Shown piece after piece: positions 6,321-27,994 of a stretch of DNA of 29,966 nt. Both the position numbers and the translations under genes were made by a program. How positions within the stretch are numbered: the first letter of the stretch is position 1; every line of letters begins with the position of its first letter. Under the pieces are notes generated by a model, which was not told the DNA's origin, made no database searches, and saw nothing but the letters and a program-made list of their open reading frames with translations. This DNA is from Rhizaria sp. SCN 62-66 (Eukaryota). Where the stretch lies: contig MEDY01000158.1 in assembly GCA_001724265.1 (NCBI GenBank), positions 62,001 to 91,966 of the forward strand. Reading direction: 5' to 3'.

Positions 6321-9300
6321 TTACGCACGCGCAGAGTCAAAGTCCAGCACTGTGCGATCCTTCCCAGTCGCAGCCCAAGGGGCCTTCGAGCTGTTGATGT
6401 CAGCAAACGTATTGCAGACCGGAGACGCGGCCGCAGGGCTCGCGCCGGGGGGCGGCATCAGCTCCTCCTTCCACGCGCGCACAGTCGCGACTGTGGCCGT
6501 CGTGGGCGCGATGGTGACCGAGATCAGCCCCAGCGCGCGCCCCACCGCGAGCAGCCGCAGCCGCGCGCGCAGCAAGCACGGCAACGCCGCCCGCTCGCGC
6601 GCGCGCTGCAGCCGCGCCCGGCTCTGCTCGGCCTTAGTCATCGTCGCTCCCACCGCGGCGCCGGCGTTCGCGGCCGTTTCAGCGGCCTCAGCGGCGCCGG
6701 CGGCCTCGGCGCCGGCGGCGTGGCGCGCAGCGGCCCAGGCGACGGGGTCGTCGAACGACGCGTCGCAGGAGCCGAGCCTGACGTCGGGCGCGGCGCTCGT
6801 CTCTGAGGACACATCGAACGCGGCGGCCGTGGCCGTGGCAGCGCTGGGCGCGAAGAGCACCGGCGAATACACACCGGGCTCGCTCTCAGCCAGCACGGCG
6901 GCGAGGCGGGCGTCGACGCGCGCGCACTCGCCCTCCCAGCCCACGGGCGCGGCGGACGCGGGCGCGCGGGCCTCGGCGGGGACCGCGGCGGCGCGCGCCA
7001 GACCGGCCGCCGCCGTCGGCAACGTGGCGAGGGCGTCGAAGGCGGGCGCGTACTGCTGACGGCGCCAGAGAAGACGCATGCGCTCGAGGCGCGCCGACAG
7101 CGCGGCCTGGCTAAGGCGTGAGACGAGCGAGCCCAACAGCAGGAAGACGAGGGACGCGGCGAGAACGACCCATGAACCCCAGGTGAACCGCGCGGCGAGC
7201 TCAAAGCATTTGTTCGTGCCCTGGAGCAAGTCGGCAAAGTTGTCTTCAAGGATGACGTTGATGGCGTCGCAGTTGTCGCCGACCATGAACCCGGCCAGCG
7301 TGGTGATCTGCCCCACCGTCGCGGTGACCGAGATGAAGAAGACTTCGAGACTGGACCACGCGAACAGCACATCACTCAGCACCTGCAGCTTGAGGTGGCG
7401 CGATACGGTAAGCGGGAGCATCCATGCCGCGCACATGCACAGCGCATACCCCAGCGGCATAAAAAGTGAGAAAATGAAGTACACGGCCTGCATCCACCGC
7501 GTCGCCAGCGCGTCCGGGTCCGCGGTGTCGCGCGCCATATACACGCCGATGTCGATCAGAGACACTGGACGGTGGCCCGCGGAGCCGAGCAGCCAGCCGG
7601 TAAGGCCGGTGAACTCGAACTCAAACGCGGGGATGATCGACGCGTAGACAATCAACGCAATCGTGCCCAAGAGCAGCGTCAGCATCATCGCACGGCCCAG
7701 CGCAGTAAAACGCACAAACAGAGCGAACCGCGGGGGCGCCTTGGCGCGAGTGCGTGTGGCGTAAAACCCGCTCACGCGCGACACACCGTCCGCGCCGACA
7801 CTGCTCGACCCCGCAGACGTAGTTGCGGTCGCAGTTGCAGTTGCGTGGGTGAAGAAGGGCTTCTCCGCGCCCTTGTGCATCGGTGGCAGCGGCATGGTCA
7901 GCGACGACGCGGACGCGCCCGACGACGGCGACGGCAGCGGCGGAAGCGACTGCGCGCCAGGCACCAACAGCCCGCCGTCGGGCGCCCGCAGCGGCAGCAG
8001 CGCGGGTGTGGCGACCTCCCAGTCGCGCGCGCCGTCGCTGTCGCCGTCGCCGTGGCGCGCGCGGCTGCGGCTACGGCTGCGGCTGCGTCCAGCCCCAGCG
8101 GCGGCGGCGGCGGCCGCGGCGCGCTTGGCGTGCGCAGGCAGCGCCGCTGCGTCGATCGCGTGGTCTTGGCGGTACATGCTGCGGCGGGAGTCCAGGTCGC
8201 GCAGATAAGGGTCAACGGTAGCCGCGAACGCTGAAAGCACGCGTTCGACCGTGCGCGCCTCAGCAGCGCTCTCTGCAGCGGCAGCGGCGGCGGCGGCGGC
8301 GGTGGCGGCCTCGTCCTCGGGCTCGCTGGCGCCGCCAGCGTTGCTGTCCCCCGCCGCAGTGACAGCGGTGATGAGGCGCGAGGGAGCGCGCTCTTGACTG
8401 CGCGCGCGGCGCTGTTGTTTGCCGGGCGAGGCCGTCAGCAGCGAACGCGCCACGGCGCCGCCGTCGTAGACTGCCGTGCCAGCGCCGTCGTCAGTCTCGG
8501 CGGCGGCGGCAGCGGCGGTGCGGGCGGCTGCGCTGTGGCGGCTGCGGCGGCGAGTGCGGCGGCGGCAACGGCGGGCGACGATCGCGGAGACGTCGTCGTA
8601 CGCGGCCAAGAACACGGCCAAGTGCGCAGCATCGTGTGGGACACTAGCACTACTCGCACTCGCGCCCGCGGTTTCAGTTGTTGCATTTACGCTCTCGTTG
8701 GCCGGAAGAGTCGCAGCAGCAGCAGTGGCGGCGGCAGCAGCGGCGGCGAGCTCGCGCTGTGAGAAGACGATGCCGAGCGCGCGCACAGCGAGCTCGGCCT
8801 CGGCCTCAGCGGCGGCGATCGCCTCCGCAGACTCGGGACTCAGAGCCTCCGCGTCAGCTCCCGCCAGCGCGTCCTCGGCAGCACCCGTGCCCTCGTTGTC
8901 GGCGTCGGCGTCGTCGTCGTCGTCGGCGTTGTTGATGATGTCGGAGTGGGCAGATCCGGTCAGGCCGCTGTTGATCGACTGCGCACGCGCACTCGCGGCG
9001 GCCGAGTTACCGCGGCGCTCGCGCTCACGGTCACTGTCGTGCTCACGGCGCGCCAGGGCCGGGTGTTGGCGACCGGCCGCGAGCTCCGCGAACGCGCGTG
9101 GCGGCAGCGCGAATGTCGCGGCCTGGTGTAAAAACCCACCGACCGAGACGGCAAGGCGGGTGACTGAGCCCCGGGTGACCAGAGACGCACCCGCGGTCGC
9201 CGGCACAGCTGAGGCCTCGGCGGCGGCGGCGGCGGCGGTCGCGGCGGCGGCTGCTGAGGGGCGCGCGCGCGACGGCGTCAGCAGTCCCGGCGGCACCACC

Positions 9301-12300
9301 GCGGCGTGCGCGTGTGTGTGCGTGTGGTTCATGTGCGCGAGCGAGAATGACCCGTTGGAGGACGAGGATGCGGTGAGGGACGGTGTGGACAGCAGGGCCG
9401 GTGCAGTAAGGCCGCCTCCCATGCTGTCGTCGCCGCCAGAGGGACCGAGACCCAGCGCGGCGCGCGCGGCCGCGGCGGCGGAGGAGGAATCGTCGGCCTC
9501 AGGCGCACGGTGAGTCGACGCCAGCCACGAATCCGCCGCGCTAGAACTAGCGCATAAGTCATCAGTCGCAAAACCATCGCCGTTGTTGTTGTTGTTGTTG
9601 TTGTTGTTGCCTGCAACCACACTATCGGCGTTAAGACGGCCCAACGCGGCAACGGGCGGCAAACCTGCATGTAGCGCCCTCACCGTGCAATCCCCGTCGG
9701 AAGTGGTAGGAGAAGCGGTGTTGTGCGCGTTGAGCGGCGGTAGCGGGAGCGCTGCTGCGAGACAGAGCCTGCGCTGGACGTGGCGGAACACCAGCCGCTG
9801 GCGCGCGTGCTCGGCCGCGTCTGCGGCGGCCGCGGCGGCGTGCGCGGAAAGCGCGATGATGATGTGTGCGAGGCCGAGAGACATCATCGTCGCAAGCAGG
9901 AAGAGAATGAAACCAGGCGCGGCAACAACGACGATGTCAGCGAGGAAGAAGCCCGCGTCGAACGCCGCCACAGCGGGGCCGGCGCCGGCGGCGAGCCCGG
10001 CGGCGGCAGCGGAGAGCGTGTTTGCGATCACACCCGCGGCAGCGCCGCCGGCGCCGGTGGCAACGGCGCTGGAGTTGGTGATGGGAGCGCCGACGTTGAC
10101 GCGCATGCGGAAGCCGACGACCATGAAAAGCATGACGTAAGCGTCGATCATGGACCACTTGCCGAGCACGTCGACCCAGTGTAGCATGCGGGCGCGCGTG
10201 GCCGGCGACAGCTTCGAGACGGGCGCGGTCCAGCCATACGCCATTAGCAGCAGCTTGAGGTAGGGCCAGATACCGGAGAACGCGACGATGAGCGCAAAGA
10301 GGTAATATACACCAGCAAACCACATCTCCATCGCCGTGGAGACGAGTGTGAAGTCAAAGACGGAGCCCATGTCCAGCACGGTCGCGTCTGCGGGCACGCC
10401 GGGCCCGCTGGGCTGCAGCCGGAGCTGCGCCGTGACGCACGCGCCCGTGCTCGAGTTGGACGCCACGAACAGCGAGATCGTGAGGAAAACGGCGAAAAGA
10501 GCGCCGAAACGCAGCGGAGCAGGGATAAAAGGCGTCAGCAGAAGCGGGGAGCCGTCAGCTTCGATCACGGGCACCGTCGCAGCAGCGGCGCCAGAGCACC
10601 CGCACTCGCACTGAGTCCCAGTCGCAAGCGCTCCAGTAGCAGTGGCTGAGTCAGAAGATACAACAGCAGCGGCAGTGTCGTCAGCGCTCAGCAGCAGCGG
10701 CGCGCTCGCACCTTCGCGCTCACTGCGCTTGCCGCCCTTCGCACTGGAGCCAGAAACGATAACTGCATTAACACTTGCATGAGCGTTATTCGTCTTGTTG
10801 CTGTGTACGCACGTGTACGGGAAGTGCGCGCATACCGCGCGCTCGCGCAACGGCGCACTCGCCCCCGCATTCGCACTCGCGTCTTGAGCGGCCTTGCTTC
10901 CGCTCGCGGACACCGCGGACACAGCGGCGTCGTCAGAGGCCTCGTTCGCAACGCGGCGGCCGCGCTGTTGCCCGCGCGAGCCGACCAAGTGCACGAACAG
11001 CAACAGACACGCGGCGCTGGCGGCGCTGATAACGGCCAGGAAGAGCCCCCATAGCGCGACGCGCACCGCGGACGCGACTGCGCCCTCGCTGGTCGAAGCT
11101 TCACCGGGGACGGTGACGCCCGCGCAGACGTACGGCGCGCGGTCGCCCATGTACCGCAGCGCGGCCGTGGCGGCGGCGGCGACTTCCTTGGCGTGCTCGC
11201 GGAGGAACTTGTTGACGGCGGCGGCATCGGCCAGTCCACCCGCGGACGCGCCCCAGGGCTCGTGACCGGGGGACGCGATGAGTGAAAAAGACAGAGAGAA
11301 GTTACCCATTGTGGTGTCGGAGGAGAGCAACTCGACGCCGGACGCCTCGCGGGGACGCTTGCCGAGAGAAACCGCTTCAGCAACACCGGCGTTGTTCCTA
11401 GGACTGTCGGTGAGCCAGCTCGCAGCGGCGCCGGGGAAAGCGAAGCCGAGCGCAGGACCGAAAATATCACCCAGCGTCGTCGCAGAAGCACCGGGACTGA
11501 CTGCACGCAACTTGCTCCCAGTAGCCTCGCCGCCACTATTGATGCTTGCCGGGTCGTCTTCGGGGAGGTCGGCCTCGGTGACCGCGAGCAGCGTGGGCAG
11601 GCAACCGAGGCGGACCACGCTGGTGAGCGGTTGCCGCAGCAGCAGCAGCCGGTCCGCGGGCGCTAACAAAGCGAAAGCTGTGGTGAAGTTGGCCAGAGAT
11701 GCCGCGAATGAAATGTCGATTGACCGGACGCCGACCGGAAGAGTCAGTGACGCAGACACGGCCAGAGGACCAGCGCCCGCGGGCGGCAGGTCAGCAGCGG
11801 CCAGGCCGGCTGTGGCTGCGGTCCCCGCAGCAGGCTCTGCAGTAGCGCCGAAAGAAAGGGCCTGGAACAGAGTGTCGCCGGCACGGTGTGTGTGGGTAGT
11901 CGCGTTGAGCAAGTCGACAATGTCGAATGAGTCGAGGCCGGAGAGATGAAGAGAGTGGAGCGTGACGTCGATCAGCGAATCCGTTACCGAGTCAAGCAAC
12001 GACTTTGACGCCGACTCAACAGTATCTGCAGCAGAGTCAGAAACAGACGCAGAATCGGAAACAGACACAGAAGCAATGTTTAAGCCCTTAAAGCGCTCGC
12101 CGGCTGCGGCAGCGGTGACAGCGCCAAAGAGACTCTTTCTCGTACTTAGCTCTTTCTCGCGGTCGTAATCATACCGTCCATCGGGCGCAAAACAGCGGAC
12201 AACCTCATCCAGCCCCGCCGCGCCGCGCACGACGTCGCCGACAAGCCAACGCAGCAGTCCCGCAAGCCAGTCCGAGGACCAGTCAATGCGGTCGCGCGCG

Positions 12301-14384
12301 GTCAGCGGCGGCAGCGGCGGGCCCGCGGCCGTGGCGGCGGCGCAGTCGGCGGGCGCGGTGTGGACGGCGGTCGCCAGCGCGGTGTTGGCCGCGGGACGGG
12401 CCATCTTGTCCAGCGCGGCGTCGATGAGCAGTGAGGCGAGACGGCCGACACGGTCGGGATGCAGTGCGAGCGCGAGGAGATTGTTGATCAACCGGTCTAA
12501 ACCGGCTTCGAGTGAGTCGGGGGCTACGTCCAGCGGTGTGAGGGTCGCAGTGTAAGTGCCGTTGACGCTGAGCCGGCCCAGCGCGGCGTCGGAGCACAGG
12601 GCGAGCAGACAGGGACCGGCGGAGGCCGCGAAACTGCCCGGCGAGCGAACACTCGCAGACTCTGACCCAGAGACAAACCCAGACTTAGACTTTGACTCTG
12701 GCGTCGGCTCTGGCTCAGGCTCGGGGTCCGGCTTGGGCAGAGGCGTGGGGTCAACAATCTGATACAGTCGAACGTCCTCGGCGCGCTCAGGGTCGATTAG
12801 CGGGCGTAAATCTAGCTGCAGCGCTGGGGCGGCAACAGTGAGCGAGACGTTGAACCTCTCATCCAGCTCCTGGCCGTGGAAAGTCTCCGAATCCACCGGT
12901 TTGATGTGCAACCGCATTCCGGGCAGCGCGAACGCGACTTCACCCAGTGCGAAACCTGAGAGGAACTCAAGTGGCCGCGCCTTGGGCGACTGATGCAGCA
13001 GCTGCGCGCGTGTGAAGGAAGTTAAACCGCTGAGCGAGAGCAGTGGTACGGCGAGTGTGATGGTCGCGATGCCGGGGATGAGCACCGAGACGTTTGTTCC
13101 CTCGCGCATCAGAGGCACAGGGAGCACTCCAGTCCCGTCGGTGAACACGCGCATCGCGCAGTTGAGGCCCGAGGCGTCGCGGCCGAAAAACCCGCCGGTG
13201 GCGCCCTTGACGTCGTCGCCGCCGCCGGAGCCATGCAGCGCCGTGTCGAGTAAGGTTAGAAGAGGAACAGAGGCCCAGTCAACGGCGCGCGCGGCGGCGG
13301 CGGCGGGCGGCGGCGGGAGCGGGCGGGCGGCGGCGTGGACCAAAGGCTCCGCTCTGGCGCGCATGCGGCGAATCGACTCAGTGCCGTTGACCGCAGTAAG
13401 CTCGGCCAGAGCGGGACAGACCTCCCTGCTGATGAGGCCCTCGATCGCGGACTTGATGACGGGCTTGAGCAGCGATAAGATGAATCCGGAGATAGTGGGG
13501 CCAAACGTCAAGTCGAAGTCGAGTTTAAGCGTGCAATCATCGAGCCGGACCGCCGTAGGCCACAGGCGGCGCAGTTTGAGCTGCTCGTCGTCGCCCGTCG
13601 CGTTTGACTGCAGCGCCAGCGCGGCCGACGCGGCGCCGTCGTGCGCGGTGACCGTGAGCTCAACCTTATCAGTGAACGAGATAGACGGCACAGTGAACGT
13701 GACGCGCCCGGCACAGACCGTGCCGAGTCCAGATAAAGACAGCGTAAGCGCGGCAACGTCGTCGGGCTCCCGCAGCGGCGGCTCAAGCTGCTGCGAGTCA
13801 AGTGTCTGCAAGGCGATCCCGTGGCACGATAAATGCTCCAGAGTGCCGTGGACGGCGCTGGTGTTGAAGTCTTGGGGCGGGACCGAAAAATTGAGGCTCG
13901 CAAGCCAGCACTGCAGAAGACCGTCGCAGTCGTCGCGGAGACGCGCGCGGCCCGCCGCAAACGCAGCGCTGGCAGCACTGGCACTAGCACTGTTGCCGCC
14001 GCGAGAGTGATGAGCGCTAGGGCGATTGTGGGAAGGCTCGGGGGATTTGTAAGCGAGCCACTCTGTGATCACAGAGAGATAGTCGAAGTCGTTAGCATTG
14101 CTCGCAGACAAGCCAGCAGCAGCACCAGCGTCGTCGTCGTCGTCATCATCGGTGACTGTGATCGCAGGATCTGTTGTTTCTGTGGCATACTTGTAAGCAC
14201 TGTTGGATGTTGCGGAGGGAGTCAATGCTGAGGCTGACTGCGGGGCGCATAAAGACAGCAGTAGCAGAAGCGCGGCAACGCGGAGTGTAAAATGGAGTAA
14301 ATGCCTGCGTGGGGCGGGACCTGGGGGCGCGGAGCGGGCGCGCGCAGGCAGGGGCGGCTCTGGTGGTTGTGCAGCGTCACCCAT
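6321..14384 (-). CDS. Giant multi-pass membrane protein: signal peptide, large extracytoplasmic region, two paraquat-inducible protein A (PqiA)-like domains
   Basis: 2687-aa uninterrupted ORF, ATG to TAA. Hydrophobic signal-like segment (VAALLLLLSLCAP). PqiA-like unit 1 at ~10365-9850 (LIVAFSGIWPYLKLLL...LGKWSMIDAYV) and unit 2 at ~7690-7130 (FSLFMPLGY...LFAWSSLEVFFIS); both echo the PqiA 'WSMxDVF' signature. Confidence 0.75.
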   Translation of the reverse strand: MGDAAQPPEPPLPARARSAPPGPAPRRHLLHFTLRVAALLLLLSLCAPQSASALTPSATSNSAYKYATETTDPAITVTDDDDDDDAGAAAGLSASNANDFDYLSVITEWLAYKSPEPSHNRPSAHHSRGGNSASASAASAAFAAGRARLRDDCDGLLQCWLASLNFSVPPQDFNTSAVHGTLEHLSCHGIALQTLDSQQLEPPLREPDDVAALTLSLSGLGTVCAGRVTFTVPSISFTDKVELTVTAHDGAASAALALQSNATGDDEQLKLRRLWPTAVRLDDCTLKLDFDLTFGPTISGFILSLLKPVIKSAIEGLISREVCPALAELTAVNGTESIRRMRARAEPLVHAAARPLPPPPAAAAARAVDWASVPLLTLLDTALHGSGGGDDVKGATGGFFGRDASGLNCAMRVFTDGTGVLPVPLMREGTNVSVLIPGIATITLAVPLLSLSGLTSFTRAQLLHQSPKARPLEFLSGFALGEVAFALPGMRLHIKPVDSETFHGQELDERFNVSLTVAAPALQLDLRPLIDPERAEDVRLYQIVDPTPLPKPDPEPEPEPTPESKSKSGFVSGSESASVRSPGSFAASAGPCLLALCSDAALGRLSVNGTYTATLTPLDVAPDSLEAGLDRLINNLLALALHPDRVGRLASLLIDAALDKMARPAANTALATAVHTAPADCAAATAAGPPLPPLTARDRIDWSSDWLAGLLRWLVGDVVRGAAGLDEVVRCFAPDGRYDYDREKELSTRKSLFGAVTAAAAGERFKGLNIASVSVSDSASVSDSAADTVESASKSLLDSVTDSLIDVTLHSLHLSGLDSFDIVDLLNATTHTHRAGDTLFQALSFGATAEPAAGTAATAGLAAADLPPAGAGPLAVSASLTLPVGVRSIDISFAASLANFTTAFALLAPADRLLLLRQPLTSVVRLGCLPTLLAVTEADLPEDDPASINSGGEATGSKLRAVSPGASATTLGDIFGPALGFAFPGAAASWLTDSPRNNAGVAEAVSLGKRPREASGVELLSSDTTMGNFSLSFSLIASPGHEPWGASAGGLADAAAVNKFLREHAKEVAAAATAALRYMGDRAPYVCAGVTVPGEASTSEGAVASAVRVALWGLFLAVISAASAACLLLFVHLVGSRGQQRGRRVANEASDDAAVSAVSASGSKAAQDASANAGASAPLRERAVCAHFPYTCVHSNKTNNAHASVNAVIVSGSSAKGGKRSEREGASAPLLLSADDTAAAVVSSDSATATGALATGTQCECGCSGAAAATVPVIEADGSPLLLTPFIPAPLRFGALFAVFLTISLFVASNSSTGACVTAQLRLQPSGPGVPADATVLDMGSVFDFTLVSTAMEMWFAGVYYLFALIVAFSGIWPYLKLLLMAYGWTAPVSKLSPATRARMLHWVDVLGKWSMIDAYVMLFMVVGFRMRVNVGAPITNSSAVATGAGGAAAGVIANTLSAAAAGLAAGAGPAVAAFDAGFFLADIVVVAAPGFILFLLATMMSLGLAHIIIALSAHAAAAAADAAEHARQRLVFRHVQRRLCLAAALPLPPLNAHNTASPTTSDGDCTVRALHAGLPPVAALGRLNADSVVAGNNNNNNNNNGDGFATDDLCASSSAADSWLASTHRAPEADDSSSAAAAARAALGLGPSGGDDSMGGGLTAPALLSTPSLTASSSSNGSFSLAHMNHTHTHAHAAVVPPGLLTPSRARPSAAAAATAAAAAAEASAVPATAGASLVTRGSVTRLAVSVGGFLHQAATFALPPRAFAELAAGRQHPALARREHDSDRERERRGNSAAASARAQSINSGLTGSAHSDIINNADDDDDADADNEGTGAAEDALAGADAEALSPESAEAIAAAEAEAELAVRALGIVFSQRELAAAAAAATAAAATLPANESVNATTETAGASASSASVPHDAAHLAVFLAAYDDVSAIVARRCRRRTRRRSRHSAAARTAAAAAAETDDGAGTAVYDGGAVARSLLTASPGKQQRRARSQERAPSRLITAVTAAGDSNAGGASEPEDEAATAAAAAAAAAESAAEARTVERVLSAFAATVDPYLRDLDSRRSMYRQDHAIDAAALPAHAKRAAAAAAAAGAGRSRSRSRSRARHGDGDSDGARDWEVATPALLPLRAPDGGLLVPGAQSLPPLPSPSSGASASSLTMPLPPMHKGAEKPFFTHATATATATTSAGSSSVGADGVSRVSGFYATRTRAKAPPRFALFVRFTALGRAMMLTLLLGTIALIVYASIIPAFEFEFTGLTGWLLGSAGHRPVSLIDIGVYMARDTADPDALATRWMQAVYFIFSLFMPLGYALCMCAAWMLPLTVSRHLKLQVLSDVLFAWSSLEVFFISVTATVGQITTLAGFMVGDNCDAINVILEDNFADLLQGTNKCFELAARFTWGSWVVLAASLVFLLLGSLVSRLSQAALSARLERMRLLWRRQQYAPAFDALATLPTAAAGLARAAAVPAEARAPASAAPVGWEGECARVDARLAAVLAESEPGVYSPVLFAPSAATATAAAFDVSSETSAAPDVRLGSCDASFDDPVAWAAARHAAGAEAAGAAEAAETAANAGAAVGATMTKAEQSRARLQRARERAALPCLLRARLRLLAVGRALGLISVTIAPTTATVATVRAWKEELMPPPGASPAAASPVCNTFADINSSKAPWAATGKDRTVLDFDSARA
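9582..9609. repeat. (GTT)n microsatellite encoding poly-Asn in the PqiA-domain protein
   Basis: Run of nine GTT units read directly; translates as NNNNNNNNN on the minus strand. Confidence 0.9.
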
Positions 14385-16759: not shown

Positions 16760-17815
16760 CAGCGGAGCTGCGCGAGACGCGGCGCGGAGCGGGAAAGGGA
16801 AGTTGTGGTTGGGGTTGTTTTGAGAGGGCGAAGTCTGGCGGAGTTTACGCTGCTATATTGGAAATTTAAAGAAAATCACAGAGTGAATATGAGTTTAGTT
16901 AGGGCTTTGATGGCTGTTTGTGCTGCTATAGCTCTATTATCGATCATATGGCTCGTATAAACCGGAAGATAATGAAATGACCGCAAGTTCATCAAGCCGA
17001 CCCCTTCAGAATCGCAAAGAACGATATAGCGGAGAATACGTTGTACAGTAAAGCACCGATTGAAACATATGTTAATATTTGCATCTAAGTTTTACGTGGT
17101 ATGCCTTTGAATGCTAACGACGGATTTAGAAGTGTAAAGTGCTTGTTTTCATTTCCTTCTCTCAGCCTCGCTCGTCGTGACCGTCGAAGGCTGTGGCCGA
17201 CAATCATTCAACTCAAAACTGGGCTCATAGTCGAGCCAAATGATCACAATGAGCACTGAAGTCTACAAAAGTCACATATATTGCACTCAATTAATTATTT
17301 CATGACAAGATCTTGTTTATTCACTTGAAGGTCACTTTTATCATTATAGAATTCTGTGACGAACTGAGTGCTCATCGCACTGTGCGCTTAGATCTCATGT
17401 TACTATTGCCACTAAAGCAGTGAAAAAGGCAGACAGCTCTGAAATTGCACGCTTCCAATAAACAAAATTAATAAGCTGGAGTAGAAGTTAGCGCAAATAC
17501 GAAAAATCTGTTGTACTCCAGTGAAGAAGCATTCTGATACAGATTGCTACGCAACTTGCAACTTGAAGCGAACAACATGACTGTGAGTAACACGCTCGCC
17601 AGCGCAGACAGAAAGACCAATTAGCGTGCGAGCATATACGACCGTCAATGCATGTTGTGTTATTGAAAATACTTTTGATGCGATCTGATTTCCTTCTCAC
17701 GCAACTCAAACCCGTGTGACAACTTCGTTTCGCACCGCAAACTGCAGCGACAAAGCACAGCGCTTCCGTCAATCGGACCAACGCAGGTGAGCCCTTGGCC
17801 TCGTGCCCCCGTGCC

Positions 17816-20800
17816 ATGTTCAACTGGCTTTTCAAAAAGCGCAGCAAAACCCCGCCGGAGCACTCCGCGTCTGCAAGCCCACGCAACGCACGCCAGTCCT
17901 CGCCGGCGCCGCCGCCACCGTCACATAGCTTACCCCCGACACCCCGTCTCAACACCGCAACAGCAGCGCAGCGCCATGGCAGCACACCGCGTCCCCCCAC
18001 CGGCGGGAACCAGAGTGAAGCATGCGCGGCGGACTGCGGGGCTGGATGCCGGTGCGCGTGGTCGCCGCCGCCGGTGTTCCGCGGTGGCACGCCCACGCCA
18101 CAGGCGCTGGCAGCGGATGCGGCCGCCGCGACAGAGCGCCGCCGCCGCCGCTCGCAGCATAGCCGTCAAGGACACGGCCACGGACACGGACACGGGCATA
18201 GCCACGGTAGCGGCAGTGAGCATACAACAAGTGATACGAGTAGCGGGGGGAAGATGCGCGACGACGCGCACTCGCAGTCCCACTAGCAATCGCACACACA
18301 TGCGCATATCCCGGTGAAAGAGCTCGGTGACAAAAGCAAAGTGCAAGATGTTCAAGAGCACAGCGGTGACCGCGAGCAGGAAGAGCGCCCCATTGACCCG
18401 CGCTTAGACGCTGAGTCCGTACACTCTGCTGCACAGTCGTCAAAAGCACCGTCGAAAGCGCCCTCTAAAGCGCCGTCAACAGTGTCGTCGCACGCTGCAT
18501 CTTTAACCCCATGGACACAGGCCCAGCAGCAGGCACAGTTACAGCCGCAGCAGCAGAAGCTCCAGTCCCCGCGGCCTCTCGCGACATGCGCTGCGTCTGC
18601 CGGAGTCACGCCAATCATCAGTAGTGCGCACCCGTCGCCAGTCCTCGCGTCACCCATGCCTGCGCCGCCGCCACCAGCAACTGCGGGCGGCGCCAGCGGT
18701 GGCGGGACAACTGTAAGCGCAGCCGAGTCGTCGGTGGCGGCGCTGCGGCGCGCGCACGCGGACGAACAGCGACGCCGTGCAGTGGCGCAGGCACGCAGTG
18801 CGCAGAGGGCGTTCGAGGCGCAGCAGCGGCAGAAGCAGCGCCAGCTCCAGCGACACCAGCAGATGGAGCTGCAACAGCAGCAGCAGCAGAGTGTGCGGAT
18901 CGATAGCAGCCGCGGCGATGTCAGCAGCGGTGGTGCGGCGATAAGGGAAGTCAGCAGTGGCAGCGAAGGTGACAGTAGCAGTCTCAACGACAGCGCAGAC
19001 AGCGACGACGACTCAGACAGCGGCAAGAAAGCGACAAAGCCCAGCGCAAGCGCAGCTCTAGTACCTGGCATCATTCCCACGTCAGCGCTTTTGACCGCTC
19101 GCGCGCGCGCCAGCAGCGAGTCGGCTGCGCGCCCCTCTGCATCGACAGCCGCTGCCACTGCGTCGAACGCGCAGCCACCCACACGCACAGCTGCAGGCTC
19201 GACAACAACGGCGACGACTACAGCAACAACAGCAGCGACTGGTGGCATTGGGCAGACGCGCGAGTCGCTGCGAAACACACTGGCTCCGGCGCAGCAGAAC
19301 ACCGCGGGCGCGGCGTCACTGCCACCCACACCGCCCGCAGTCCGTAGCTCGCGCAAAGATCGCACCCGCGCGCTCCCACCAAGCCCGCGTCAGTCCGCGG
19401 CGACAGAGACTGCAGCAACGGGAACCAGTGGCGTTGGTGTGGGGCCCGCGAGTGCAGCGGGGAGTGGAGTGGGCGAGCGCAGTGTGTGGTTCACGAGGCC
19501 TGGCGCGAGCCCTGCAGCGCGTGCACGCAGATATGGCGCGACACCGCCTGTTCCAGTTCTGGTCTCTCCTGCAACTACGGCCGCCGTGACGCCGTCAGCA
19601 ATCAACAGCGACACACAGCATGTGCTCGCACAGGGAACCGAGAGCGTATACAGCACACCCGCCTTCACGCCCACGTTGGCACCCATGAGTGGCAAGTCAC
19701 TGCGCGCGGCAAACAACGGTTACGCTGCTGCAAGCAACGGGCGCGATGTTGCTAACAACGGACGTGCTGCAAATGGGCGCGCGCGCACGTATGAAACTCC
19801 GACGCCAGCGCCCACAGCGCAGCGCGCGCCCGTGTCTCTCTGCGCGCCGGCAGCGTTGTCATCAGCAATGTCAGAGGCAGCTGGAGAAACGGGCGATGAG
19901 GTTGAGCTCGCTGAAATCGTTCCTGTCTCGACCGCAATCACAACAGAGAAGGCATCGGCTGCAACACCAGCAACAACAGCAAATGGAAGAGCTGGACGCC
20001 CAACGCCTTCGCTCTACTCAACACTGCTGCGAACACCGGTAATCACTCCGCTGCCATCTTCGCTGACCACCGCTGCGACAACAGCTAGAGCAGCAGCAGC
20101 GGGACCGCATATCGCCGATTTGCGCATCGCTGTCTCGCCGCCCGCGGCCGCCACGCCCGACATCGCTGTCTCAGCGGCTGAGGCCGCCGCCACGGAAGCT
20201 GCGGCGCGCGCAGCGGCAGCGTATACTGCCTCAGTCGAAGCCGCATCCTCAGCAACAAACGCACATCACAAGGCAGCAAAGGGAACAGCTCCAACAGCAA
20301 CACTGCAACAAAGTGCTGGCATTGGTGCTAGATCTGGCGCAGGTGCAAGTGACATTGTTGGCGGAGGCGGCTGGAGCGGTGGACTGGCGGGCGCAGTGTC
20401 AACTGCGATCACGGCGCACCGACTTGGGCTTGCGCCGGGTGCGGCGGCGACTGCAGCTGCGGCGGAGGCTGCGTAGGCTGCGGCCGCGCACGAGCGTCGC
20501 CAGCGCCGTTGGCAGTTGCGCCGGGAGCAACGCCACGCGCAGCACCGGAAGCAACGCCACAGCAGTGCTACTGGCGAAGAGAGCGACCGTAAACACGGTG
20601 GCGAGACAAGCAGCGGTGACGACAGCGACGACGATAACGATGACGACGCCTATGATGACGACACAGAGAGCGGCGGGCCGGGGTCGCCGTACTGGGATGA
20701 ATACGGACAGGTGGCTTACGGACCGGGCCGTTGGTGGTTGCGCGACCAGCGCCGTCAGCAGCAGCAGCAACAGCAGCAGGAGCAACAGAGTTCTTATCAC

Positions 20801-21940
20801 GTGCACGGACACAAAGATGAACACAGCCACAGACATGCGCACGGACTGCGCAGCAACGCAACGGCGCGCGCGCACCACAGCAGCCATGCAGTTGTTCAAG
20901 CCACAGCATAGCAACAGCGGTGCAGCGCGTGTGGCCCGCGGGCGCGCTCTGTTCTGTGGTTCATTGCACGCCTCATACCAGCAGCAATCGTAATCGGACT
21001 AGCGGCCGGGCTGGGGTGCGCGCTACACGCTGATTCGGGCTCGCGCGCGCTGTTTCTGGCGTTTATACTCGCAGCGTGGCTGGCAGGCACAGTCGTGCAC
21101 GAGGCAGCGCACGCGCTTGTCGCGGCCGCATACCATCACGTCGTCGTCAAACCCTCACAAGCAGATCAGCAAGAGCATCGCCATCGCAGCGTAAGCGCGG
21201 ATGAAGGCAGCATCGAGGCCGAGATTGCGAAAGAAAATAAAAACAGCGGCAGCAGCAGTGGCGAGGTGTGGGGGAACGTGCTGAAGTATGAAACCCCCGC
21301 GCAGTCGCTCCTGCTGCCCTTGGTATTCCTGTTGTTGGGAGTCGTCGCACTGCCCGGACCCGCGCCTGCGTTGCGCCCGCGCACGCGCCTCCGCGCCAAC
21401 GCCGACGACGACGCTGCAGTCGAGAGCAACGATGACGGCGACGACATCGACGGCGGTGTCAAGTTAGCGTCCGACAACAGCTGCCGCGGCCGGTGCTGGC
21501 GCGTGGTGGCCGCGCTCGCGGGCCCCGCAGGGTCTCTGCTGGCGGCGTGCGTGTTCGCGGCGCCGCTGTGGGCGCAGGGCGGAGCCTCCGCGGCCCCCGA
21601 GCGCGGCGCGGGCGCCTGGGCAGGGCTCGCGCTTGCCGTGAGGCTGCAGCTGATGGCGACAGTGCTCGCGCTCGTCCCAGTCCCGGGCTCGGACGGGGCC
21701 GCGGCGGTCTCCGCGGCGCTGCCCGCGGCGCTCACGCGCGGCCCGCGGCTGCTGCCGGAGACGGTCTTCAGTCGCCGCGCACGCACGCTGGTGGTGGGCG
21801 TGGGGTCCGTGGCGCTGTTTGTGCTCGTGTGGTGTCTGCCGGGAGGATCCAGCTGGGCCACGGACGCCGCGGTCGGATTCGGGGTGCCGCGTGGAGACGT
21901 TGAGCACGGGCTCACGCGGTTCAGGCTCGTCAAGATGTGA
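17816..21940 (+). CDS. Site-2 protease (peptidase M50) family membrane protein with ~1000-aa low-complexity N-terminus; contains three in-frame TAG codons (18284, 20474, 20909)
   Basis: Track ORFs 17795-18286, 18314-20476, 20516-20911 and 21095-21940 are all in one frame and are separated only by single TAG codons. Start gccATG at 17816, end TGA; 1374 aa when TAG is read as sense. C-terminal domain has TM segments, LAAWLAGTVVHEAAH (HExxH), VAALAGPAG and LALVPVPGSDG (variant of NLLPxxxLDG). Confidence 0.78.
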
Positions 21941-22573
21941 CGCGCGCGCGCGAGGGAGGATGGAAACCATCTTGGTGCCAGATTGCGTGTCGAGTTTTAA
22001 GTCTAGGCCGAGCGTGTCCGGAAGAAGCAGCGCGCCGAAAACGTCGTCTCCAATGAAGATATTGTTATTTTAGTCTATCAGCGCCCTGCTTACACATCTA
22101 AGTTGCAATTTTAACGCGCATATCTAATTACAGCGCTTTCTGTACTGCGATTTTGAATATGTGGTTCATCCGTTGAAGCGCACCAGTGAGTGCTGTGTCA
22201 TCTGGAGAAACTTTCTGTTTTGCGAGAGACACTCGTCGTAAATGTGAGACATCGAATGAGCCATAAACATTAAACTGTTTAATCACACTGTGCAGAAAAT
22301 TACACCACGCGAATAGCTTATCTTGGCTAGTTTAACCTGATAAAAAGTATCGCCCATCCGCACCGCAACTAACTGACGTCGCCTTGCTTCTGTTTCATCC
22401 TACACGACACTCCATACCAGGCGAGATCCGCCTTTTAATAAGGGCGATTGACTTTATTGAGAACGCGTTCAACTAAAACGTGTCTCAAAAGAAAGATCGA
22501 CTTTTCAGCGGGGTCTCCACCCCTTCCGAATTACCGCGAAGCTCTGTTGGCCACGCCGCTGACTCCGCGCCAA

Positions 22574-25500
22574 ATGCGGCCCTGCAGCAGCCCCATCAGG
22601 CTGCTCTCATCTGCCGCCCGCACACACCGCACGCCCTTGCGCGTTTTTACTCTCCTATCCCTTTTTGTTGCCGTTCTGCTCGCTGCGTCACCCGCCGCAG
22701 CCGCGCCCTCCGTCTCCCACTACTCGCCGTCCGCCGCGTCTTCCACCGCTTCAGCTACGCAGGGCGTGGTCGGTGCGGATGCCGTGGGCGTGCTCGACGA
22801 CGCCAGCATGCTCTACGGTGGCGGCGCAGTGCTAGACGACGAGGACGACGTCTTCAACGACCCCTTGCTTTACGCTCGCACACACAGCTCGACTCACCGC
22901 ACCGCCTCCTCAAACTCTGCCACAGCCGCAGCCGCGGCAGCAGCGGCGGCATCGCGCGCGTCGGGCGCCGGCAACGGCGGGTACAAGGGCTACCCGCGCT
23001 CCGGCGCCACGTCACACCCGCCGCGCGCGGCCTCTGGGATTGGGTCACTTGGAATCACCGCCGACGCCGCCGCCGCGGCAGCCGCAGCCGCGGCCGCCGA
23101 CGCGCTTAGCGGACGCGGCTCGCCCGCAGCCACGGCCGCCGCGGGCGGTGGCGCGGGCTCGAGCGCGAGCGCGGCGGACACGCTTGCGGCGGACTCTATG
23201 GCTGCGACATCACGCTTCCTCGTGGATCTGACGATCATCGCAGCGTCGCAACTCTTCTTCTTCGCTGTCGGCTGGGTGTTTTTCCAGTCTAAGCTGCTCC
23301 ACAGCTCCCACCTCGACGAAGCGACCGCCGCGGCTGTGGGCGCCGCTATTGGGGCCGCCTCGGGGCCTGGCGCCACAGCGGGCGCCGTCGCCGCGGCCGG
23401 CGTGCTGCCCCTGCCGGCCGCTCTCAGCGCCGTCTCACTCGACGACACGACGGGCGGCGGCGGGATCGGCTCGGCGACGGCTGCGGCTGCTGTTGCAGCG
23501 GCCGCCGGAGGATCGCCGTCTGTTGCGTCGCTACGACTGCGGCTGCGGCTAGTGCGCGCGCTTTTCTCCCTCACGTTCACTCTCTCCTGCTCGATGTTCC
23601 TTCTGATGCTGTTTGAGATCGCGGATGTGATGGATAAACGCAGTCGCTTGCTCAACTGGCGGCTTGACCTGACGGCGCTGCTCGTGCTGCTCATCTTCGT
23701 CATCCCAAACCTCACCATTTTTTCGGTCCTCACGCGGTACGCGCGGGACACGCGCCGCGCCGCTGCGCTCACTCTCGCTCTTTACGCACTGACTCTATAC
23801 GGCCTCTCAGCGCTCGCGTCGCCGCTTAACCTCACCATCACCACGGCCGCGCCCGCCGCCGGGGCCGCTGTCGGCGCCGCGGCCGACACTGCTGCAGCTG
23901 CAGCCGCCGCAGCCGCCGCAGCCGCGACCGCCTCCGCGTCCGCCGCAGCCGCCGCGGCGCGTGAGTCGGCCCCGTCCCTCCTCTGGTGGCTGTTCGAGTT
24001 TGACCGCGCTTTGGCGCGCATTGGCGTCGTCGGCGTCACGTCCATCGCCATTCTATCCGGGTTTGGCGCTGTCAACTGTCCTTACGAGTACCTCGAGGTG
24101 TTTTTGCGCAAGGTTGACCCGGCTCAGATCGCGCTGTCTGAGCGCCGTAGCTAGCGAGCGGCCACTTTATCGACCGCAAAGAAGCGCCTGTTAGTCGCGC
24201 TGATCAGGTTCCGCACGCGGAGGGACCGCGCGAACGCCGCCGCCGCTGCTGCTGCTGCTGCTGCTGCTGCGGGTGCGAGTACGGGTGACGCGACCGCGCA
24301 GCAGCAACAACAGAACGAGTTGCAGTTGCAACAGCAACAATTGCAGTACCAGTATCACCAGCAACAGCAACAGCAACAGTTTGGCTACCCCGTGGCTCCC
24401 TTCGGCGCGGGCCCTGCATTCAACAACGCCGGCACCTTATACGGACCACACCCGCAGCCGTATCTGACGGGCCAACCTGCGCCTCCGCAGCAGTTCCAGC
24501 CTCATTACCCGCGTCAGTACCAGCCTCAGTACCCGTTTGCGCCCATCCCCGCACCCGTCCCCGCGCCCGCGCCTGCTCTGCATTGCGCTCCTGTGACCGC
24601 CGCCTTTGCATCGCCGCCGCAGCCGGGCAACCCCGGTTTGTACGCACCGGGCGGCGCGGGGCCTGCTGACGCGCTTCTGTTACTGCCGCCGTCCGCGCTT
24701 GAGTCGGAGCCGTCTTCCCCCGCCGCGTCGCTACGCGCGATCCCCGACGAGGAGATCGGGCTCACGCTGCGGTCTGGCAGCAGCAGCGCCGGGGCGCGCA
24801 CGCGGACGACGGCCGCACAGCAGCGAAGGCCGGCGCAGACGCAGACGCAGCCGCTCAGTCACGCGCAAGCTCTGACGACACAGTCTCCGCAAACCACCGG
24901 ATTTGACGGGAGCGTGATTCACGGTGCAAAGACTGCGGGGATGAGTGCCAGAGCGCCGTATGCGCCGCTGCCGCTGGGTCTGGCGCCGTCTCCGCTTGCG
25001 CTTACACTGTCGGGCTCCTCGGCAGCGACTCTCATTGACCCCGCGCCCTACCAACAACAACAGCAACAGCAGCAGCAACAGCATGTTCGGCACCCGTATG
25101 CATACGCGGGGCCTGGTATCGCGTCGCTCGGCTTTGGCTTTGACGCGAACGCCGGCATTGACGCTACGACCGCTACTGCTGCTCCTGCTCCTGCTCCTGC
25201 TGGGGCGGGTGTAGGGGACGTGTTTGTTGACCCGTATTTGGCTGATGGTCACGCCGGAGACAACGCATACGGCTACGGTTACAACGACAATGATGCGGCT
25301 TACGGCGGGATCAGCTATCCTTTTAGCCCTGTCGGCGCCGACGGCGGCTTTGCTTACGACGAGTACGGTCAATTCTCCGGAGGCCACCCCGGACAGTACA
25401 GTCATTTCGGGCAATACGGCCAGTTCGACGACGACGCTGCGTTGTTAGAGCAACCGTTGTCGTCTTTCGCGTCCGCTGGCTACGCCGCTGCCACCGCGGC

Positions 25501-27994
25501 CGCCGCAGCCGCAGCCGCCGCCGCCGCGGACGCTGGCGCCGACGCCGACGCCCAGGCCCTCGCGGCCGCCGACGCCGCCGAGGCCGCCGCGGGCGCGGGC
25601 GTGGGCGGAGGCGGCGGCCGCGGGCTTGGCGGCGGACTCGCTGCGCTGCTCCCGGAGCCGGAGCAGGAGCAGGAGGCCGGTGCCGGCGCCGGCGCAGGGT
25701 CCGCGTCTGCTCTCACGCGCGGTGTTCAATCGGCCGGCTCACGATCACGTGGCAGCGTGAGCGCTACTGTCAGTGGAGCAGTCACAGAGGCACTTGGTTT
25801 CGTGCTCGGCCGCACAGTCGATGACGATGACGACGACGACGACGACGACGACAATGAGGGCGACGGCAACGCTGTGCGCATGCAGCGTCTACGGCTGGGG
25901 GGCGAAACTGACGCCACGGGGGTGCGGCGGACTCTGCTGACCAGCGGCGGCAACGCAGGCGCTCACAGTCACGGTCACGGGCCTAACGGTGGGCTTGCGC
26001 TGGGGCGCGGGCTGGGTCGGGCGCTAGGTCGGTCTGCCGCCAACTCTGACGACAACGACGATGACGATGATGACGACGACGGAGACAATTCGGACAACAT
26101 TGCGGTCAACGGCGACGGCGCTGGCGTCGACAGCGCTAAATCTGGCGATTCTACCGCTGTCTCTGGCGCAGGCGCTGGCGCAGGCGCTGGTGCAACGGGG
26201 ACTGGGGCGCGCCGCAGCCGCGCACAAGACCGCGAGCGCGAGCGTGAGCGCGAGTGGGCTCGCAGCCGCCGCGCGCGCGCACGTGCGATGGCTGACGTTA
26301 TGGCCGCTGCTGATTTCGACAGTGGCAACGCAAGCAGCACACACACACAACACACCGCGAACGCTGCGATGCATAGCATGGCGGCCCCACGCGCGCTGCT
26401 CCCGCGGTTTGACTCTGCGGCATCAGCGGCGTCCGCGGCGGCGGGCTTCTCCGATGCGCAGTCGAGTTCGTCTGAGACTGCACCGACTGACGCTGATGCC
26501 GACACGAGGCGCGCGCGCCAGTTCCCTGCGCCGCTGCTGCAGCCGCACCCGCAATACGCGCAACAGCAGCAACAACAGCAGTACTATGGTGCGCCTGTCG
26601 CCTACACTCAGCATCAGCAGTTATATAGTTACCCTGCGCTTGCGGGGCCAGCGGGGGGCTTTGCTCCTGGCCTTGGTCCCCACGGCCACGGCCACGGCGC
26701 TCCCGCTTATGCTGGATACCCGCCTCCCCCTCAGGGATATGGTGCTGCATACCCGCCGTACATGCAACAACAACAGCATTCCGCGTTTTCTCACCCCGCA
26801 CACTTTGCGAATGCCCAGGCGCAAGCTCACGCTGCTGCGATGCAGCAACAGCAGTTCATGCAGCAACAACAGCAACAGCAGCAGTTCCAGCATCAGCCGC
26901 ATCCTTTGCCCGACGCCTCCCAACAACAGCAACTCCAAACCCGGTCTGACGAGTCACACCAAGTGGAACTACAGTCGCACGCGCTCGCGCCTGACCAGAG
27001 CCAGAGCCAGAGTCAGGCGTACGGCCCCGACTGGCCTGACTGGGACGCCCCCGAGTGGGCGTGGCTGGGGGCCTCTCGCGCGCATCCTCCCTCCGCCGCA
27101 GCGACTGAGCGCGGTGTCTCACAGCTTTCCGTCGAAGTCCGCGCTCTCGAGGAAGTCCGCGCGTTTTACCACAGTGACCATGCTGCGCTGCTCGCCGGCC
27201 GCGGGCTGCAGCTCCGCGCGCGCACGCTACGCGGCCGCCTCACAAACTCACTGGGTTACCTACTCTCGCTCTTCTGTCTGTATAAGATCCTAACTTCGGC
27301 CGCGAACGTACTGTTGCGGCGCGCGGCGCGCACGGACCCTGCCTCGCGCGCGATCCAGCTTTTCCTCGAGTACGTGCTCGACCTAGACATCGACGTGCGC
27401 ACGTGGTCGCAGCACCTGTCGTTCGTCATGGTCGGCGCGCTCGTCGCGACGCAAATGCGCGGTTTCCTGCTCTTCATCGCCAAGGTTTTCCGCGCGTGGG
27501 CCGCTTTCATGACCGTAGACGCAGTGTTGCTTCTGCTGACGGAAGTCATGGGGACGTATTTCCTGTCCATGGTGCTGCTTCTGCGCGTGAATCTGCCCAC
27601 GCAGTACCGCCGCGTCATCACGAAAGTGCTTGGCAAGATCCAGTTCTCGTTCTACCACCGTTGGTTCGACGCTATCTTTGTCGTTTCCGCACTGCTTACG
27701 ATTGTCACGTTTGTCGTCTCGCGCAGGGCCGCTAGATCCAGGCTCGTGGACACTGGCTTCGCTCCGAGGCGCTCTACTGCAGCCCACGCTGGCCGTGGCG
27801 CGAGTGCGAGTGCGCGGGACAACGGGGCGCGCCGGGGACGCAAGCGCGGTGGCGCTAGCTCTGGCACGAGCAAGAGCACTGTGCCCGGTGCTATTGCTGG
27901 AGATGGTGGCGGCGAGCGCACGACGGGCGCCGGCAGTCCGCTGCTGGCGGCGTCGCGCGATGCGGACTCACGGCTGCGGCGCAGCAAGGTCTAA
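22574..27994 (+). CDS. GPR89: Golgi pH regulator / GPR89 / GPCR-type G protein (GTG) homolog; contains one in-frame TAG (24152-24154)
   Basis: N-half: FLVDLTIIAASQLFFFAVGWVFF, LFSLTFTLSCSMFLLMLFEI, RIGVVGVTSIAILSGFGAVNCPY. C-half: RTLRGRLTNSLGYLLSLFCLYKI, DVRTWSQHLSFVMVG, MGTYFLSMVLLLRVNLPTQYRRVIT, IQFSFYHRWFDAIFVVSA. ORFs 22448-24154 and 24320-27994 are in the same frame with only a TAG between. First ATG 22574 (alternative ATG 23198 just before the conserved part); ends TAA. Confidence 0.9.
24235..24271 (+). repeat. (GCC)/(GCT) trinucleotide run encoding poly-Ala just downstream of the GPR89 in-frame TAG
   Basis: gccgccgccgctgctgctgctgctgctgctgctgcg in the continuing frame, followed by CAG/CAA poly-Gln tracts. 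Confidence 0.85.
25820..25852 (+). repeat. (GAC/GAT)n run encoding poly-Asp in the GPR89 insertion
   Basis: gatgacgatgacgacgacgacgacgacgacgac; a second similar run lies at ~26048-26080. Confidence 0.85.

Follow-up and report, generated by a model that had tools for sequence, protein, structure and literature searches.

Introduction

Nuclear genetic codes in which UAG alone has changed its meaning are known from just a handful of eukaryotic lineages. In Iotanema spirale UAG is read as glutamine and in the sainouroid rhizarian exLh as leucine, both assignments having been obtained from transcriptome-wide codon alignments; UAA and UGA are the terminators, and UAG is scarce in Iotanema (PMC5304391). 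In phyllopharyngean ciliates UAG has passed to either leucine or glutamine, suppressor tRNAs have been found and UAA is the favoured stop, as described, partly from metagenome-derived genomes, in PMC11687900. In Blastocrithidia nonstop all three stop codons have been reassigned, with UAA doubling as terminator, so that in-frame stops stand within nuclear genes of a protist (PMC12153298). Here we analyse a 29,966-nucleotide stretch of contig MEDY01000158.1 (positions 62,001 to 91,966, assembly GCA_001724265.1, deposited as Rhizaria sp. SCN 62-66), hereafter called the window. It contains a gene for a putative membrane metalloprotease of the M50/site-2 protease (S2P) family which is interrupted by three in-frame TAG codons, and a neighbouring gene for a Golgi pH regulator (GPHR) which is interrupted by a fourth.

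The window resembles the Iotanema and exLh genomes in that UAG appears as a sense codon while UAA and UGA terminate, and the scarcity of the codon is a further likeness to Iotanema. It differs from both in that the organism is GC-rich and intron-poor, in that its eIF2B-alpha is 45% identical to the nearest named protein, and in that the unusual use of UAG is known from four codons. With the phyllopharyngean ciliates it shares the apparent change of UAG alone and a preference for UAA as stop, but the present DNA is a multi-gene stretch of 30 kb whose genes have a GC content of 65-75%, which is not ciliate-like. The reading towards which we lean, based on sequence comparisons, is that a GC-rich, intron-poor, uncultured eukaryote living in wastewater decodes UAG as an amino acid organism-wide. 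If this is true, it would represent an independent UAG-only case, in an uncultivated GC-rich non-ciliate which recurs in wastewater metagenomes; a search of the literature returned no report of a UAG-sense organism like the present one. Gene callers using the standard or the bacterial code would cut the proteins of the source organism at every TAG, and the resulting fragments would mislead the annotation of the lineage.

A single reading frame with three TAG codons

The frame under study occupies positions 17816..21940 of the window on the forward strand and comprises 1374 codons, from the ATG at 17816 to the TGA at 21938-21940. The standard code splits it into pieces, while passing the TAG codons yields one open reading frame (ORF). 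Its internal stops number exactly three and every one of them is TAG, with neither TAA nor TGA: codon 157 (TAG1, 18284..18286, followed by CAA), codon 887 (TAG2, 20474..20476, followed by GCT) and codon 1032 (TAG3, 20909..20911, followed by CAA CAG). Translation thus bears out the preliminary description of this DNA, made from its letters and ORFs, in which three serial in-frame TAGs had been placed before the protease domain. The product is divided into a low-complexity N-terminal extension of 1031 codons, for which a Pfam scan (the sole test applied to it) gave no match, and a C-terminal M50-like domain of 342 residues. The 1031 codons upstream of TAG3 are free of TAA and TGA in frame 0, whereas the two remaining frames contain 9 and 24 such codons. 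When a codon model is trained on those five genes of the window that lack TAG, it prefers frame 0 in three of the four segments delimited by the TAGs, the 144-codon segment between TAG2 and TAG3 being tied with frame +1. The intergenic regions of the window, which are 300-1050 nt long and about 50% GC, have stops throughout all frames. Since frame 0 is free of TAA and TGA, is preferred by the codon model and is flanked by such stop-filled regions, we take 17816-21940 to be one maintained coding frame and not a set of ORFs aligned by chance.

Seven long genes were recognised in the window, coding for a kinase, an aldose epimerase, a 2687-residue protein, Pex16, the protease, GPHR and eIF2B-alpha. 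They follow one another on both strands, have a GC content of 65-75%, and none of them needs an intron. Four end with TAA and three with TGA, and the absence of TAG from the seven terminators is suggestive evidence for reassignment. Over the 8434 codons of these genes the in-frame stops consist of four TAG, no TAA and no TGA; their off-frames contain 53 TAG, 51 TAA and 228 TGA. Within the window, no frameshift was found in the 3181 codons of the two TAG-bearing genes. A code of the Blastocrithidia type is excluded by these figures, considering that TGA and TAA never occur in frame, that TGA ends three of the seven genes, and that the TGA of the protease gene coincides with the end of its homologues. 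A scan of the whole window with ARAGORN found no tRNA gene, the gene for eRF1 does not lie in the window, and the Rfam families gave no match at the gathering score over the same DNA.

Under the favoured reading, 17816-21940 would be one gene whose 1374-residue protein carries a disordered low-complexity N-terminal extension fused to an M50/site-2 metalloprotease domain. Translation would continue through the three UAGs, and the domain with the HExxH motif would be made complete with all of its helices. Such efficient decoding, effective across the organism, could be brought about by a tRNA reading UAG, by an eRF1 blind to this codon, or by both.

Two further observations concern the codons themselves. 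TAG2 lies within an imperfect 9-nt tandem, GAG GCT GCG / TAG GCT GCG (20456-20482), which suggests that it may be derived from GAG via one change following duplication. After the TGA that ends the protease gene stands a C, which makes for weak termination, and the frame stays open for 19 further codons up to a TAA (21938-22000). This open frame is probably not meaningful, since the homologues end at the TGA.

The C-terminal M50/site-2 protease domain

The label of M50 protease, which the preliminary description had given to the C-terminal domain, finds no direct support in Pfam: the piece after TAG3 matches PF02163 with E 9.6 and 5.9 bits, below the gathering cut-off of 27.2, no Pfam family was found on the whole 1374-residue protein, and an NCBIfam scan of the domain returned no family. 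The label is supported by homologues, by a profile match to S2P structures and, more tentatively, by fold ranking. An exhaustive phmmer/HMMER search of 1.84 billion representative sequences gave 127 proteins at E<=1e-3, including the window's own fragment, the best matches other than itself having E 1e-15 and 9e-15. Twenty-two of the 126 non-self matches were scanned in turn, and all of them match Peptidase_M50 at E<=0.001, 19 above the curated cut-off. A profile of the family built from 43 sequences recovers the solved structures of MjS2P (3b4r, 6e-8), RseP (1.2e-5 to 1.9e-4) and SpoIVFB (0.003), and 28 of 30 Atlas feature matches are M50 clusters. The AlphaFold (AF2) model of the domain has a predicted local distance difference test score (pLDDT) of 76 and a predicted template modelling score (pTM) of 0.78. 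Foldseek found nothing at E<=0.001 with this model, its top two rows being the S2Ps 3b4r and 8vjl at E about 1. In the VIA fold ranking S2P structures take all of the first six places, with Z between 9.4 and 7.3 and the next row at 5.7 (values which are middling for helical models), and the alignments to MjS2P and SpoIVFB start at residues 11-12 of the model. We therefore accept the C-terminal 342 residues as a divergent, putative M50/site-2 protease domain, whose proteolytic activity is predicted from its sequence.

The domain aligns end to end with homologues of 250-320 residues. Invariant among them are the H/E/H of HExxH, a Trp that precedes this motif by seven residues, a GP, the P-x-P-x-x-D-G motif and a C-terminal tail of the form FGVP...FRF. 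The first predicted transmembrane helix (20939..21037, residues 10-42 after TAG3 in the AF2 model) matches, in alignment, helix 1 of both MjS2P and SpoIVFB and the N-terminal hydrophobic segment of the homologues. The second (21044..21145, residues 45-78), supported by both the alignment and AF2, carries the invariant Trp and, inside the helix, the HExxH motif itself (HEAAH, 21098-21112); W100, H107, E108 and H111 are invariant in all 12 aligned sequences. At 21671..21697, LVPVPGSDG is the counterpart of NxxPxxxxDG, beginning one residue past the position of the Asn. Here all 43 aligned sequences share P256, P258, D261 and G262, Asp261 being presumed to act as the third zinc ligand, while the Asn of the motif, present in at least 90% of the 43 sequences, is replaced by Ala253. 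The conserved tail GFGVPRGDVEHGLTRFRLVKM (21875..21937) stops where the homologues stop, the last residues of the latter being FRLVK, FRLVP or FRFW. MjS2P (3b4r), SpoIVFB (8vjl) and the short actinobacterial M50 proteins without a PDZ domain have the same HExxH in a membrane helix, the same Asp-Gly in a later helix and the same order of helices, and are of the same size, about 250-320 residues, when the insertions of the present domain are left aside. In contrast, the present protein has the low-complexity N-terminal extension of 1031 residues, and its domain departs from the homologues by two large insertions, by the loss of the GGD segment and by the Ala in place of the motif Asn.

The position of the helices determines how the domain can be reached. 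As the preliminary description had stated, no in-frame ATG occurs between TAG3 and HEAAH; the earliest one downstream of TAG3 is at 21653..21655, 541 nt beyond HEAAH. The transmembrane helices which it had placed directly after TAG3 correspond to the two predicted ones, the first core helix beginning 10 codons past the stop. Both this helix and the invariant Trp fall between TAG3 and the first ATG, and because they precede any ATG, the whole protease domain requires passing TAG3, in agreement with the earlier view that it is unreachable otherwise. In the public protein collection the protease is represented by a 281-residue fragment called from a GTG at 21095, within the helix that carries HExxH; this fragment is recorded on 6 metagenome contigs, of which the longest has 120,098 bases.

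The nearest homologue of the domain has 34% identity and comes from metagenome contigs of up to 296 kb, and one group of the homologues has a common N-terminal start of the form 'M..I.DGVI'. These homologues suggest a subfamily of short M50 proteins, so far little known, that belongs to eukaryotes or to large genomes. A metagenome scan for relatives of the domain gave 594 pattern matches and no relatives, and a scan of genome contigs gave no relatives either, for which reason the residues of orthologues at the TAG sites are not readable.

A fourth TAG in the neighbouring GPHR gene

The use of TAG within a coding frame is not confined to the protease gene. The next gene on the same strand (22574..27994) encodes a GPHR of 1806 codons and ends with TAA, with Pfam matches to GPHR_N at residues 476-538 and, far downstream, to ABA_GPCR at 1548-1718. 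Its one in-frame TAG is codon 527 (24152..24154, + strand), followed by CGA, and is spanned by the GPHR_N match (E 1.1e-16). Twenty-three homologues align on both sides of this codon without extra residues. As they align unbroken across the site, a residue has to be inserted at the TAG, and an intron is excluded there.

At 1806 residues, this GPHR is about four times as long as usual (about 455 residues), with roughly 1000 residues of low-complexity sequence rich in A, Q, G and D between GPHR_N and ABA_GPCR. Large low-complexity expansions seem to be typical of proteins in the source organism. The initial search for GPHR homologues gave two matches only and was dominated by low-complexity words, and a search of the PDB gave no GPHR relative.

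Recurrence in other metagenomes and in RNA

The stretch is present, at least partly, in 15 listed rows from nine studies, which are metagenomes of wastewater, bioreactors and sludge. Four runs from three further studies were compared with the window; the evidence consists of assembled contigs, which may include DNA, and gives no single transcript or expression level. Run X3 covers 17642-18378, 19890-21996 and 23311-24227 and carries all four TAGs with no differences, the GPHR one being found in the last of these contigs. The contigs of X4 (17948-18612, 19960-20716 and 20805-21158) carry TAG1, TAG2 and TAG3, and those of X5 (18188-18652 and 20680-21052) carry TAG1 and TAG3. Run X8 is a polyA RNA library, and its contig over 20349-20675 carries TAG2, collinear with the DNA, unspliced and unedited, which at this site speaks against splicing, named in the preliminary description as a possible refutation. 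No alternative letters are listed at the TAGs in the contigs of any of the four runs.

The depth of X8 is zero in the bins flanking the gene (17000-17373 and 22236-22609), although from contig data the ends of a transcript are not inferable. Joints and loose ends of contigs are mostly CAG/GCN repeats with sides of 20-26 letters; they were taken as repeat cross-matches, and none of them skips a TAG with support. In X5, one contig has nine differences in 70 nt (27385-27454) near its end, in the 3' part of the GPHR gene; they may come from an allele or strain that has diverged, or from cross-matching of repeats.

Alternative explanations

The main rival to reassignment retains the standard code and supposes context-dependent readthrough, programmed or leaky, in which near-cognate tRNAs would supply full-length protease and GPHR at a reduced level; we consider it unlikely. 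Type-I programmed readthrough, as in the tobamovirus replicase, uses UAG-CAR-YYA, of which UAG-CAA is the first half, and CAA or C after a stop weakens termination. Several properties of the four TAGs agree with such a context and weigh against reassignment, as do the further points given below for decay. CAA follows two of the four, though it makes up 0.88% of codons overall and 1.1% in the protease gene (uncorrected P about 5e-4, about 0.03 when corrected for 61 codons), and C follows three of the four, compared with 27% C at codon position 1 and a purine after five of the seven true terminators, a bias equally compatible with assisted readthrough and with reassignment. TAG is moreover very rare in frame, even the scarcest sense codons being used 6-8 times as often (4 occurrences of TAG against 26 for TTA, 30 for AAA, 32 for CTA and 33 for TAT), and all four sites tolerate substitution: one occupies a variable alignment column, and the other three are surrounded by low-complexity sequence. 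The likeness to the tobamovirus type is however incomplete, the YYA half being missing at both CAA sites, where the next codons are TCG and CAG, and the full CAR-YYA hexanucleotide occurring at none of the four. Stable downstream structure is lacking as well, none of the four 120-nt stretches beating its shuffles (z of 0.44, -1.02, 0.93 and 1.54). It is also atypical of that system that one ORF should have three stops in series and that a housekeeping membrane protein such as GPHR, whose synthesis would hang on readthrough, should contain one, and readthrough would leave the lack of TAG terminators to be accounted for. The expectation that leaky passage of three stops in a row, with the loss multiplied at each, would yield next to no product is likewise sound. 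The preference for reassignment over readthrough expressed in the preliminary description is consequently upheld in part: it gains from the fourth TAG in GPHR_N, from the terminators and from the recurrence of the TAGs, and loses from the rarity of the codon and its CAA context. The separate-product explanation, in which the TAGs are true stops and the M50 domain is made from a non-AUG start past TAG3 or from a transcript of its own, appears very improbable to us. Near-cognate codons do exist (CTG at 20954, ATT at 20963 and GTG at 21095), and the gene caller made its 281-residue product from the last of these; but the CTG falls inside helix 1, and a start at the GTG would lose both helix 1 and the invariant Trp. 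The four consecutive pieces follow each other in one frame with coding composition and no spacer, as opposed to the long, stop-filled regions that separate genes elsewhere in the window, and the TAG of GPHR would be left unexplained.

Decay of the locus, with the protease gene and perhaps that of GPHR as unexpressed or dispensable pseudogenes in which CAG, GAG or TCG has mutated to TAG, is in our view improbable. It draws on the fact that, in genes so rich in GC at third codon positions, most single-mutation paths to a stop lead to TAG (58-61% of the paths), which gives P 0.11-0.14 for four nonsense mutations arising at random to be TAG throughout; that all four stops are TAG was dropped as a proof of reassignment after this calculation, and the sample is limited to four TAG codons and seven terminators. 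Runs X8 and X5, which belong to one study, contain one additional A behind 21733; the resulting frameshift would abolish the conserved tail. This allele makes up all of the X8 depth at that point and about a third of that of X5, and may represent a dead copy in some strains or an error in low-depth contigs. Only two substitutions were found in the protease gene, 17882 C>T (Arg to Cys, in X4) and 21927 T>G (Leu to Arg, in X8 and X5), both non-synonymous and with no synonymous one listed, and the domain is without the Asn of NxxPxxxxDG and without the GGD segment. Simple decay is nevertheless rejected because the 3181 codons of the two genes contain no frameshift, TAA or TGA. Of all single changes about 2.4% (1794 of 75906) are nonsense paths, so four neutral nonsense hits should have been accompanied by considerably more than a hundred substitutions and by several indels, neutral decay generally bringing indels along with substitutions. 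The retention of HExxH, Asp-Gly, GP and the extreme C-terminus also speaks against decay, as do the confident model of the domain core, the identical TAGs fixed in runs of 2017, 2024 and 2025, and the contigs from an RNA library which map to the protease gene, although for the TAGs the RNA coverage is limited to TAG2 and comes from assembled contigs. Least probable of all is that the TAGs are assembly errors or are removed from the RNA by small introns or U to C editing, considering that contigs from three other studies are identical at these positions, that the polyA-RNA contig crosses TAG2 collinear and unedited, that the homologues of GPHR flank its TAG without extra residues and that no gene in the window needs an intron.

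The rarity and context of TAG are also compatible with a variant of reassignment, which we put forward tentatively as doubtful: the lineage may be partway through the capture of a stop codon, early or midway in the process, with UAG no longer ending genes yet still rare in frame, standing preferentially before CAA or C, and confined to tolerant sites. At such a stage UAG would be decoded, probably as Gln, by a near-cognate or new tRNA competing with a weakened eRF1. The rarity of TAG and the bias of its context could inform how stop codons get captured, and if this capture-stage reading were true, the organism would illustrate a natural route to a new nuclear code through an ambiguous intermediate, in a GC-rich genome that disfavours UAG.

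The candidate residue at UAG

Only the TAG of GPHR provides a usable alignment column for assigning the residue, as the three sites of the protease gene lie in unalignable sequence. In the 23 homologues this column holds L in ten, H in four, M in three, Q in two and five other residues once each. When a one-residue gap is moved ahead of the TAG, the codon falls in a column with Q in 14 of 23, and because of this one-residue indel the site is undecided between Gln and Leu. Glu, Tyr and Trp are absent from both candidate columns. A likelihood based on neighbour frequencies places Gln first, by 1.9 log-likelihood units with all seven genes and by 0.6 with the two TAG-bearing genes. Gln is thus a weak best guess for UAG, with Leu as a possible alternative, whereas this one alignment site counts against Glu, Tyr and Trp. 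The tandem GAG/TAG at TAG2 as a hint to Glu, and SQSH/XQSH at TAG1 as a hint to Ser, were set aside as too speculative.

The source organism and other features of the window

The closest protein to the window's eIF2B-alpha is from a metagenome (60% identity), while 45% is the highest identity to a named protein, that of Fonticula alba, whose match covers 71% of the query. In a quick tree of eIF2B-alpha, the window and the nearest metagenome protein share a long branch which is placed by Fonticula with weak support (74), and long-branch attraction was flagged. A scan with this metagenome protein led to a single locus, whose ORFs are the C-terminus of the window's GPHR and an eIF2B-alpha of 333 residues; for this reason it was read as the same locus and not as a relative. 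In our judgement, the organisation of the window (multi-gene, mixed-strand, intron-free and 65-75% GC) is unlike that of a ciliate or a trypanosomatid. The gene for the 2687-residue protein (6321-14384, - strand) is an ORF uninterrupted by in-frame stops. Pfam recognises a single segment in it, PqiA (paraquat-inducible protein A) at residues 1341-1425, with E 2.6e-9, which is unusual for a eukaryotic protein.

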